Program-made: the position numbers and the translations under genes
Part shown: in pieces, positions 1 through 33,840 of the stretch
How the letters are laid out: the number at the start of each line of letters is the position of its first letter
How positions within the stretch are numbered: position 1 is the stretch's first letter
The notes under the pieces: generated by a model
The model's input: only the letters and a program-made list of their open reading frames with translations
Databases searched by the model: none
What the model was told of the DNA's origin: nothing
From: Nemertoderma westbladi
Taxonomy: Eukaryota > Animalia > Xenacoelomorpha
Assembly (NCBI GenBank): GCA_032718475.1
Contig: JAUCBJ010006023.1
Span: forward strand, 1 to 64,000
DNA: 64,000 bases
Reading direction: 5' to 3'

Positions 1-171
1 GGAAACACATCATGCTAAGGGTTGCCCGACCATTAATTGCATTTTTTGAAACCCAGAACACAACCCAAGAAGCAACAACAGACAGGATTGCTGGTAGGTA
101 GAAGGCTAGAAGGGTGATGAGACTTTGGCGTTGGAAGAACATGGTAAATTCCAGGTGAGTGACATTTCTTG
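1..171 (-). CDS. pLGIC copy A exon: beta10, M1 and start of M2
   Basis: Acceptor ttcattttAG; translation [56 protein letters not shown] matches the GABA-A/GlyR M1 pattern Y-x-P-x-I-L-x-V-x-x-S-W-V-x-F-W. Near-identical to 55545-55719. Confidence 0.92.
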
Positions 172-33100: not shown

Positions 33101-33840
33101 CCGGGTACCACCCCCGTTCGCCGCATTCGCATCTCATCGAGGAAGTTCCGGTCCGGGTACCCCGTGTAGGCCTATTCATTCATCATTGTTGTTTTTAAAG
33201 ACCTACCTACACCTACCTACATTCACCCTACACGTGCATCTACATGTAGGCTACACATACCTACATGTAGCCTCTATGTAGGCTATACCTCTACGCAAAA
33301 TTTATACCCCCAATTTGTGCCAATTTCTAATGTAAAAACTCCCATCATATTATATGATATCTAAATCTTATATTTTTAAATTCACCAGTATGTAATTGTT
33401 TAAACCTGATGAAGGTACGGGTTACTCACCCATATCAGGTAGGACTTGGATCAGATAGTGTGAAGAAATGTAACATTATTTAGATTAGTCAGTAGATACT
33501 ATTCATATTACATACATACAGTATACATCATCAGTTTACTTTAGTCTACATAGTAGACCTAACATCAATTAATGTGTGATACTTACCTTAGCCCCTACTA
33601 ATCTGTCGCCACAGCAATCAACCCGATTATAGACATGAACTTTACCAACAGATACATCTTCACCTAAAGAAACCCACCACCATGCAAAGAGATCATTGCA
33701 CTCATTTGGTGAATCACAAGTATGCGAACATGATCCTCTGGAGAATTTACCATTTTTATTACCATCCACTGCCTTACTGGAATCTCCACCAGTATGGTAA
33801 TTAGAACTCTGACCAGTTAATTTTCCGAAAGCAATGTTAC
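1..33840 (-). CDS. Copy A: multi-exon gene for an F-type lectin + 3 cbEGF + 2 TSP1 + Cys-loop ligand-gated ion channel subunit (3' end runs off the left edge; first/signal exon not found)
   Basis: Exons 33587-33840, 30068-30273, 28822-28944, 27580-27705, 26173-26298, 21180-21341, 19577-19738, 17957-17975, 17716-17795, 13242-13366, 7040-7200, 6656-6753, 5162-5290 and 1-171 have AG/GT boundaries and chain with compatible phases. The only break is one extra G in exon 30068-30273. Confidence 0.8.
1050..2500 (+). mobile_element. 5'-truncated CRE-clade non-LTR retrotransposon (end of RT, Zn knuckle, restriction-like endonuclease)
   Basis: [20 protein letters not shown], then [44 protein letters not shown] and PVACETLG motifs; in-frame stop at 2223; AT-rich 3' tail. 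Confidence 0.85.
1240..1510 (+). repeat. Degenerate C-rich ~21-bp minisatellite (ccaccaccatccgcgacg-like) inside the CRE ORF
   Basis: Repeated gacgccaccacc units producing a Pro/Thr-rich translation. Confidence 0.8.
2660..3575 (+). mobile_element. RTE-clade LINE RT fragment, frameshifted
   Basis: [61 protein letters not shown] motifs. Confidence 0.9.
4335..4760 (+). mobile_element. RTE LINE 3' end fragment
   Basis: Similar to 28140-28486 and 48530-48797; ends in a (TAG)n-like tail. Confidence 0.75.
5162..5290 (-). CDS. pLGIC copy A exon: loop F to loop C region
   Basis: 129 nt, phase 1-1, [50 protein letters not shown]; paralogous to 60055-60183. Confidence 0.85.
6656..6753 (-). CDS. pLGIC copy A exon containing the Cys-loop
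   Basis: 98 nt, phase 2-1; [32 protein letters not shown] gives C-x13-C with an FPYD core. Confidence 0.95.
7040..7200 (-). CDS. pLGIC copy A exon: loop A to loop E
   Basis: 161 nt, phase 0-2; [53 protein letters not shown]; paralogous to 60983-61143. Confidence 0.88.
7788..9089. mobile_element. Non-autonomous foldback/TIR DNA transposon inserted in an RTE 3' fragment
   Basis: Inverted arrays of ggacacttcccccc at both ends; flanking direct repeat ccttccag(g) of 8-9 bp; the uninterrupted target (gagatccttccaggcttcccg) is visible at 57175-57195. Confidence 0.85.
8540..8720 (+). repeat. ~36-bp G-rich tandem repeat, about 5 copies
   Basis: gggggtttgggggcggcagcccccaagaaaagaagc repeated. Confidence 0.9.
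9433..10662. mobile_element. Non-autonomous TIR DNA transposon (possibly pogo/Tigger-like), complete copy
   Basis: 25-bp TIR agtagggtgagtgagggagacttga at 9433-9457 and 10638-10662; near-identical second copy at 47311-48510; splits a CR1/L2 fragment. Confidence 0.85.
10663..11100 (-). mobile_element. CR1/L2-type LINE RT fragment
   Basis: Minus-strand reads [17 protein letters not shown], and [20 protein letters not shown]. Confidence 0.7.
12555..12900 (+). mobile_element. RTE LINE 3' fragment
   Basis: Same family as 28200-28480 (aaggacactggccttgaagatg core). Confidence 0.75.
13242..13366 (-). CDS. pLGIC copy A exon: beta1-beta2 (loop D)
   Basis: 125 nt, phase 1-0; [41 protein letters not shown] contains the W-x-D-x-R motif; paralogous to 61378-61502. 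Confidence 0.9.
14730..14923. repeat. Palindromic subterminal repeats (ttaagagcgctcttaa) ending in a transposon-like terminus ...ggggctccgta
   Basis: About 7 degenerate units visible; likely one end of a DNA transposon. Confidence 0.6.
15560..15840 (+). repeat. ~21-bp tandem repeat (ttggaactaagttcg core), about 12 copies
   Basis: Directly visible; explains the 'LELSSYP' ORF. Confidence 0.9.
16503..17074 (+). pseudogene. G2E3-like HECT E3 ligase fragment (N-lobe only, two exons, frameshifted)
   Basis: [64 protein letters not shown], a GTAAGT...AG intron at about 16812-16918, then [26 protein letters not shown]...[10 protein letters not shown]. No catalytic C-lobe seen. Confidence 0.75.
17716..17795 (-). 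CDS. pLGIC copy A exon: start of the extracellular domain
   Basis: 80 nt, phase 2-1, acceptor tttcattttcAG and donor [32 protein letters not shown] resembles the pLGIC 'GYDxxxRP' segment. Confidence 0.75.
17957..17975 (-). CDS. 19-nt micro-exon linking TSP1 to the channel domain
   Basis: cAG/GTAAGT boundaries; phase 1-2 exactly bridges the TSP1 exon (ends phase 1) and the next exon (starts phase 2); encodes (E)MDLFD(G). Confidence 0.65.
18262..19165 (-). mobile_element. RTE LINE, 5'-truncated, with 3' tail
   Basis: [34 protein letters not shown] motifs; (TAG)n tail. Confidence 0.9.
19577..19738 (-). CDS. Thrombospondin type-1 (spondin-like) repeat exon 2
   Basis: 162 nt, phase 1-1; [53 protein letters not shown] with 6 Cys. 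Confidence 0.92.
21180..21341 (-). CDS. Thrombospondin type-1 repeat exon 1
   Basis: 162 nt, phase 1-1; [53 protein letters not shown]. Confidence 0.92.
21983..22099 (-). pseudogene. Truncated cbEGF exon (lacks Cys6 and a good donor)
   Basis: [39 protein letters not shown] then runs into a poly-G/repeat sequence; a close relative of exon 27580-27705. Confidence 0.7.
22813..22929 (-). pseudogene. Second identical copy of the truncated cbEGF exon
   Basis: Lies inside the ~830-bp tandem duplication 21727-23394. Confidence 0.7.
23232..25990 (-). mobile_element. 5'-truncated L2/Crack/Daphne-like LINE (APE endonuclease C-terminal half + RT), frameshifted
   Basis: [62 protein letters not shown] and FFADD motifs; 3' stem-loop and poly(A) at about 23232-23270. 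Confidence 0.9.
26173..26298 (-). CDS. Calcium-binding EGF exon 3
   Basis: 126 nt, phase 1-1; [42 protein letters not shown]. Confidence 0.93.
27580..27705 (-). CDS. Calcium-binding EGF exon 2
   Basis: 126 nt, phase 1-1; [42 protein letters not shown]. Confidence 0.93.
27800..28486 (+). mobile_element. RTE LINE 3' fragment
   Basis: [15 protein letters not shown] and [11 protein letters not shown] motifs; tagtag tail. Confidence 0.88.
28822..28944 (-). CDS. Calcium-binding EGF exon 1
   Basis: 123 nt, phase 1-1; [41 protein letters not shown]. Confidence 0.93.
30068..30273 (-). CDS. F-type lectin (FTP/fucolectin) domain, C-terminal exon, with a +1 frameshift in a G run
   Basis: [41 protein letters not shown], then in the +1 frame [27 protein letters not shown] (FTP 'G-x-Y/F-V...L-x-x-CEV-x-V-Y'). 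The exon is 206 nt where 205 is needed. Confidence 0.85.
31619..33309. mobile_element. Mutator-like (MULE) non-autonomous element
   Basis: ~105-bp imperfect TIRs (gggtata...tataccc) and a 9-bp TSD ccaatttgt at 31610-31618 and 33310-33318. Confidence 0.88.
33587..33840 (-). CDS. F-type lectin (FTP/fucolectin) domain, N-terminal exon
   Basis: 254 nt, phase 1-0; [84 protein letters not shown] has the QSS, AVDG, SCSHT and NRxDCCxxRL signatures. Confidence 0.95.

Follow-up and report, generated by a model that had tools for sequence, protein, structure and literature searches.

Can a Cys-loop ion channel be built as one protein with a fucose-binding lectin, and what would such a lectin do for the channel? 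This question is raised by a 64,000-nucleotide stretch of the Nemertoderma westbladi genome (contig JAUCBJ010006023.1, positions 1 to 64,000, hereafter the window). Two near-identical Cys-loop genes lie here in tandem on the minus strand, gene B upstream (visible at 61502-52554) and gene A downstream (channel exons 17795-1), and exons for a lectin, EGF and TSP1 modules are placed between gene B and the channel exons of gene A. We suggest, with a probability of roughly 45%, that gene A encodes a single chimeric, exon-shuffled subunit whose lectin would serve to anchor a predicted chloride channel on fucosylated surfaces, not to gate it directly. The lectin-stalk-channel architecture is real and unusual. 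The gene model is provisional, as it contains a frameshift, lacks a first exon and relies on predicted splicing.

Domain architecture of gene A

Fourteen exons with AG acceptors and GT donors are predicted on the minus strand, the last of which extends past the window end. In order, they encode an F-type lectin domain (FTLD), three calcium-binding EGF modules (cbEGF), two spondin-type TSP1 modules and the Cys-loop channel. The lectin is split between exon 1 (33840-33587, phase 1 to 0) and exon 2 (30273-30068, 206 nt). The cbEGF exons (28944-28822, 27705-27580 and 26298-26173) and the TSP1 exons (TSP1a, 21341-21180; TSP1b, 19738-19577) are all of phase 1-1. A candidate 19-nt micro-exon (17975-17957, phase 1 to 2) leads into the extracellular domain of the channel, which is built from LBD1 with the alpha-1 helix region (17795-17716), LBD2 with beta1-beta2, loop D and WMDSRY (13366-13242), LBD3 with loop E and a loop A without WxPD (7200-7040), the Cys-loop exon (6753-6656) and LBD5 with beta8-beta9 (5290-5162). 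The final exon (171-1) holds beta10, the pre-M1 Arg, M1 and M2 up to position 8', where gene A leaves the window. From the first EGF module to M2, twelve exons form a single open frame of 494 amino acids with 0 stops.

Pfam, run on single exons, identifies F5_F8_type_C_2 in the first lectin exon (1e-9), EGF_CA in all three EGF exons (2e-13 to 6e-12) and TSP1_spondin in both TSP1 exons (1e-12 and 3e-12), all above the curated cut-offs. The Cys-loop exon matches Neur_chan_LBD (1e-4) and the M1 exon Neur_chan_memb (2e-3); these are fragments, and both fall under the cut-off. There was no relevant match for the two pieces of lectin exon 2 or for LBD1, LBD2, LBD3 and LBD5 as single exons. When the channel exons are joined, a profile of 13 Cys-loop proteins matches them at 95.7 bits; the best of 200 shuffles reaches 2.8. 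A first-pass annotation of this DNA had proposed the same 14 exons and the same domain order; all the exons were located, the last one leaving the window, and the order is borne out by Pfam and the Cys-loop profile. Its claim that the phases are compatible through all 14 exons fails at lectin exon 2, which is one base out of phase.

The best match of the lectin exon in the PDB is the fucose-binding FBP32 (E 6e-18), with the His, Arg, Asp and Arg aligned. Five of its six PDB matches are named lectins or fucolectin-related, and the remaining one is Sm-hPAF. Motifs for fucose and cation binding are defined for F-type lectins in the accessible part of the review PMC5712786. Residues H39, R72, D74 and R79 align with MsaFBP32, and we count the fucose motif H-X24-R-X-D-X4-[RK] as present, with a His-Arg spacing of 32, not 24, owing to an insert that carries an extra Cys pair. 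The cation (calcium) motif h2DGx is found as AVDGN. With the triad kept, the lectin is predicted to bind fucose.

Between lectin and channel lies a stalk of five modules with 233 residues of EGF and TSP1, for which typical module lengths give roughly 18 nm. The calcium consensus is present in all three EGF modules. The O-fucosylation consensus was not found in the EGF and TSP1 repeats, so self-binding of the lectin to O-fucose on the stalk is not predicted.

Paralog B extends the picture at the C-terminal side. Its eight exons, from extracellular domain exon 2 to M4 and the stop, lie on the minus strand at 61502-61378, 61143-60983, 60643-60546, 60183-60055, 55719-55545, 55167-55003, 53156-53039 and 52754-52554; its 5' end is outside the window. 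The chain is open to its stop and continues, after M2, with M3, a short basic loop and M4, so that M3 and M4 are visible in this paralog, as had been annotated. A hydrophobic stretch at 53418-53227 was considered as the M4 exon and rejected, the real M4 being 52754-52554. An AG-led stretch at 6590 in gene A was rejected as an exon, since its frame is not common to B.

The channel core

All seven positions conserved in the Cys-loop superfamily, by the criteria in Table 1 of PMC4795631 (of which a part was available), are present, with the M2-M3 proline seen in B only. The Cys-loop exon carries the C-x13-C loop with [F/Y]PxD in the form C...FPYD...C. The beta9 Trp, pre-M1 Arg, M1 Pro and R0' are found in both A and B, and L9' and P23' in B only. 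Four transmembrane helices are recognised in B, M1, M3 and M4 by hydropathy and M2 by alignment; A is visible to M2 8'. The best 60 of the 119 PDB matches of the M1-M2 exon are all chains or chimeras of GluCl, GlyR, GABA-A or pH-gated chloride channels.

The pre-M2 segment from -2' to 0' reads N-G-R, i.e., G-1' and R0' with no Glu at -1', and -2' is Asn, not Pro. According to the selectivity rule in the accessible part of PMC549065, an A-[RK] motif without Glu at -1' is anionic, and by this rule N-G-R would point to anions. The pore looks anionic, and we refer to a predicted chloride channel. M2 of B has pore-facing Met 6', Arg 13' and Lys 20' (55550-55140, minus strand) in exact register with a GluCl-like M2, all of which are unusual. 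A ring of Arg at 13' in the pore of paralog B would itself be unusual.

In amino-acid-gated receptors, the loop D Arg, the aromatics of loops B and C and the loop A WxPD motif take part in agonist binding. Compared with the GluCl/GABA-like matches, the loop D Arg is replaced by Thr, the loop B Tyr by Arg and the second loop C aromatic by Val, and WxPD is absent from loop A. With these residues replaced, a classical amino-acid agonist is unlikely.

The most conserved exon was searched with HMMER against 1.84 billion representatives. The 64 matches are generic Cys-loop proteins, and the top ones score via repeated transmembrane segments; the best single stretch of these matches scores 45.7 bits against the joined chain. 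Identity to known channels is at most 55%, over part of this most conserved exon. Named single-channel matches include insect pH-sensitive chloride channel-like and GABA/glycine-like proteins. In the ESM Atlas the M1-M2 exon falls closest to Neur_chan clusters, for which no additional domains are displayed, and extracellular domain exon 3 gave no usable match there. Repeated transmembrane regions make up many of the public Cys-loop entries, which are probably gene-model artefacts that inflate search scores. With its remodelled agonist site and uncommon pore residues (Met 6', Arg 13'), this orphan channel core is relevant to gating and selectivity in Cys-loop receptors.

One gene or two

All module exons close with a consensus phase-1 donor and none with a stop. 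The TSP1b donor scores 8.5, within the leave-one-out range of true donors (2.9-10.9). TSP1b and the micro-exon are separated by 1601 bases, of which 1162 match other repeats in the window, in agreement with the first-pass description of mostly repeat debris, and 439 are non-repeat. A hydrophobic exon running from ATG to a donor was sought between TSP1b and the channel and none was found. The phase-1 donors, the small non-repeat gap and the lack of such an exon in it support one gene. The linker to the channel is about 7 residues long, and the match to the channel profile begins at the micro-exon, i.e., at the start of a mature subunit, and continues to M2. Both sites of the micro-exon are within the range of true sites in leave-one-out scoring (acceptor 1.9, donor 8.2), and a 49-nt version starting from 18005 uses the same donor. 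Exon shuffling classically proceeds by the insertion of symmetric phase-1 modules behind a signal-peptide exon. With splicing as predicted, the exon anatomy is most economically read as a single fused gene, and we consider it highly probable that a fused transcript is made now or was made until recently.

Several observations weigh against a fused gene in working order, and they are given here and in the next section with the alternative explanations that they favour. One of these has the locus making two separate products. The first would be secreted and consist of lectin-EGF(-TSP1), cut short by intronic polyadenylation or at a donor-less EGF copy; the second would be the channel, begun from an unrecognised signal-peptide exon of its own. 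Past the TSP1b donor the frame reaches a stop after 8 codons, and an AATAAA follows at 19438, about 110 nt later; hexamers of this type are common in this AT-rich DNA. The earlier statement that no stop follows the last TSP1 exon is therefore right if the donor is used and wrong on read-through. The micro-exon is not unique, since 2 to 4 candidate bridges pass in the gap, with 0.16-0.91 expected by chance depending on the threshold (0.16-0.36 at tighter ones). It had been annotated as the exact phase 1-to-2 bridge, and it is indeed plausible and in phase, only not the sole candidate.

The stalk region also contains an 838-bp tandem duplication (23394-21727, minus strand, 99.3%) with two truncated EGF exon copies at 22929 and 22099, which are 90% like the second EGF exon and had been left unmentioned in the first-pass annotation. 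They have a good acceptor, no sixth Cys and no good donor. Between the two 838-bp copies there is one substitution and one 5-base length difference in a homopolymer tract; they represent either a recent duplication or an assembly artefact. A donor-less copy used as an exon would be terminal, with a stop, and could end the transcript early. Its acceptor scores 5.8, against 2.7-3.7 for the three intact EGF exons, and this stronger acceptor suggests decay or a truncating splice. Likely, the truncated exons are skipped or serve as an alternative terminal exon.

A fused homologue was likewise not found. Lectin, EGF or TSP domains occur in 0 of the 28 channel matches scanned with Pfam (out of the 64), a direct search for the lectin, EGF and TSP1 exons in channel matches gave 0 of 68, and channel domains occur in 0 of 12 lectin matches and 0 of 2 TSP1 matches; with single short exons as queries, this is weak evidence for a true absence. 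A word-based search for longer proteins with the M1-M2 exon gave 2 candidates, none significant, which is again weak evidence. Metagenome scans returned 366 pattern matches, none of which was confirmed, and a 25-mer of the lectin exon had 0 matches.

Taken against the two-product explanation, the 439 non-repeat bases leave no signal-peptide exon and no room for a promoter, each module exon has its consensus phase-1 donor, and the channel profile starts exactly at the linker. We regard two separate products as unlikely, and favour the single fused gene.

The frameshift in the lectin and the state of gene A

In lectin exon 2 the frame changes at a run of five G (30154-30150), the exon being one base too long, and as assembled this leads to a stop at residue 136 (TAG, 30123-30121). 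A complete F-type lectin domain of ~140-150 amino acids in one frame is not found in the assembly as it stands; it is complete only when the shift is read through with an X. Read in this way, exon 2 aligns to the domain end in 8 of 12 FTLD homologues, compared with 0 of 12 as assembled, which indicates that the ancestral exon 2 was a continuous lectin half.

For the fused-gene reading, the shift must be either an artefact of assembly or polymorphic between alleles. A homopolymer assembly error is the explanation that we lean towards. Residual assembly indels could also account for the three frame shifts in pol of a young long terminal repeat (LTR) element that lies 1 kb upstream of the lectin, and the homopolymer difference between the 838-bp copies also fits residual indel noise, but may be biological. 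On the other side, true decay may have shifted the frame of the LTR element, and no shift occurs in the remaining 21 coding exons (about 2.9 kb).

It could instead be that the fusion is ancestral and the frameshift real. Gene A would then be a recent null allele or young pseudogene, or a source of a short secreted lectin fragment, with B or another allele functional. The stop at residue 136 and the two broken EGF copies in the stalk fit this explanation, as do the missing first exon and the young LTR insertion at 1 kb from the lectin on its upstream side. A search of the 18.8 kb in front of the lectin, which include this recent insertion, turned up no signal-peptide exon. The first-pass annotation had noted no such exon in front of the channel, and this holds between TSP1b and the channel and extends to the lectin. 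A first exon from ATG 34119 to a donor near 34047 was rejected for an in-frame stop and a wrong phase, and hydrophobic ATG candidates were rejected as lying inside repeats or the LTR element.

Substitutions between A and B argue for a long functional history. The channel exons differ by 6 nonsynonymous changes at 528 sites and 14 synonymous changes at 144 (pN/pS 0.12, p=3e-6), and about 26 nonsynonymous changes would be expected had one copy been neutral throughout. TSP1a and TSP1b differ at 11/123 nonsynonymous and 12/36 synonymous sites (p=7e-4); these estimates cover the channel and TSP1 exons only. The channel exons are under purifying selection, and by the A versus B counts gene A was functional for most of its history. 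Any loss must thus be recent; in addition, the shift sits in a homopolymer, and nearby young sequence is also frame-shifted. A real null allele is therefore, in our view, somewhat unlikely, and we return to gene A as an intact chimeric subunit.

Tethering or gating

We suggest that the lectin, EGF and TSP1 modules could have been shuffled into a phase-1 intron between a putative signal-peptide exon and the mature channel, and that the locus could then have been duplicated in tandem. As a pentamer, the channel would display up to five stalked lectin heads. Through multivalent fucose binding it would be positioned and clustered at mucus, matrix, gametes or captured microbes. It would be opened by a non-classical cue, such as pH, ions or a small metabolite, acting on the extracellular domain of the channel itself, given that the residues that bind GABA, glycine or glutamate are replaced.

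The first-pass annotation had linked glycan binding to gating or to localisation. Of the two, localisation by tethering fits better and direct gating less well, given the 233-residue modular stalk and the precedent of the bacterial channel DeCLIC, in which, according to the available part of PMC12664993, N-terminal jelly-roll domains modulate rather than trigger gating. In the case of direct gating, one intact gene would make a channel that opens when a fucosylated surface cross-links or pulls on the lectin heads, the effect passing through calcium-stiffened EGF and TSP1 modules. The loss of classical agonist residues from the orthosteric site leaves the ligand open, all three EGF modules have the calcium consensus, the linker is only about 7 residues long, and the DeCLIC domains can alter gating kinetics (PMC12664993). 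Against this, independent modules amounting to 233 residues separate the lectin from the channel; gating of a Cys-loop receptor through a stalk of this kind was not encountered in the literature searched, and for the lobster chimeras described below the link from pattern recognition to ion flux is likewise a proposal in the accessible text of PMC8221624. Direct gating is, in our estimate, quite improbable. The same grade applies to an independently evolved glycan-gated channel in which five lectin heads on calcium-stiffened stalks turn binding or pulling by fucosylated surfaces (of microbes, gametes, mucus or a settlement substrate) directly into chloride current. If it were true, the coupling of Cys-loop channels to pattern recognition would have evolved in animals on two or more occasions, with different lectin folds.

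Should the transcript prove real, Cys-loop channels with lectins would have originated at least twice, each time with a different lectin fold. The gene would be a testable case of the idea that carbohydrate recognition can position or control a fast ion channel, with a predictable ligand class (fucose) and a modular stalk. The residues that would bind fucose, His39, Arg72 and Arg79, are predictable as targets for mutation.

Other elements in the window

The window DNA is animal, has 37% G+C and is dense in debris of long interspersed nuclear elements (LINEs). A LINE on the minus strand in an intron of paralog B (56500-59000) has an RVT_1 match (2e-27) at 57716-58462, and many shorter related copies occur window-wide. 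The young LTR retrotransposon upstream of the lectin (34862-39270, plus strand) has reverse transcriptase, RNase H and integrase domains, a 5-bp target duplication and LTRs identical at 243/244 positions; one of its pol shifts splits RNase H at profile position 61/62. At 44721-44180 (minus strand), in the interval from paralog B to the lectin exon, there is a short Pro/Gln-rich ATG exon with Cys/His-bearing and hydrophobic pieces, in which Pfam found nothing and which are reminiscent of a decayed LITAF-like gene. A GC-rich open frame of 352 codons at 1167-2222 (plus strand) contains a Pro/Thr-rich repeat, has no Pfam match and is presumably a non-LTR retroelement fragment. Further repeats are a 21-bp tandem array at 49920-50668 (35.6 copies, 99% matches) and a 1.2-kb dispersed repeat at 9457-10661 and 47311-48509, 95% identical.

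Comparison with known systems

The channel part is closest to the anion-selective family (GlyR, GABA-A, GluCl and pH-gated channels). It shares the C-x13-C loop with FPxD, the pre-M1 Arg, the M1 Pro, R0', L9', the M2-M3 Pro and, in B, four transmembrane helices. However, it has NGR in place of PAR at -2' to 0', Met 6' and Arg 13', altered agonist residues in loops A, B, C and D, and about 390 extra N-terminal residues.

DeCLIC, a bacterial pentameric ligand-gated ion channel, is similar in that N-terminal calcium-binding jelly-roll domains precede the channel core. It is prokaryotic, and its lobes sit directly on the channel with no lectin motif reported in the accessible part of PMC12664993, whereas the jelly-roll of the gene described here is that of a fucose lectin carried by a stalk of five modules. 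The mosaic F-type lectins (AAA, MsaFBP32, Drosophila furrowed and SpCRL) also combine the FTLD motifs with shuffled modules. However, the partners listed for them, in the part of PMC5712786 that was available, are CTL, pentraxin, CCP, FA58C and single transmembrane domains, and the term 'ion channel' is absent from the main text of that review. Molluscan and cnidarian receptors with other extra domains are counted in the accessible part of PMC6896357, and PMC4795631, likewise from its accessible part, cautions that such architectures are known at the genome level only. No fusion of an F-type lectin with a Cys-loop channel was found in the literature searched, the supplementary domain lists (PMC8221624 table S9 and PMC6896357) lying outside its coverage.

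The closest parallel is in the lobster Homarus americanus, for which the accessible part of PMC8221624 describes 66 predicted Cys-loop receptors with C-type lectin, pentraxin and LDLa domains. Some are expressed in brain and antennules, a link between pattern recognition and ion flux has been proposed for them, and the class is reported there only in lobster and related crustaceans. Both there and here, a carbohydrate-recognition domain and extracellular repeats are placed on a PF02931/PF02932 channel. The modules differ, being C-type lectin, pentraxin and LDLa in lobster and F-type lectin, cbEGF and TSP1 here, and by its FTLD, EGF_CA and TSP1 modules the gene falls outside the crustacean pentraxin-CLECT-LDLa class. 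The novelty that the first-pass annotation gave to a lectin-fused Cys-loop channel was thus overstated, since lectin chimeras with other folds had already been published from lobster. With the lobster class compared by description, gene A is a new variant, probably convergent, of the lectin-Cys-loop chimeras and not a new category.

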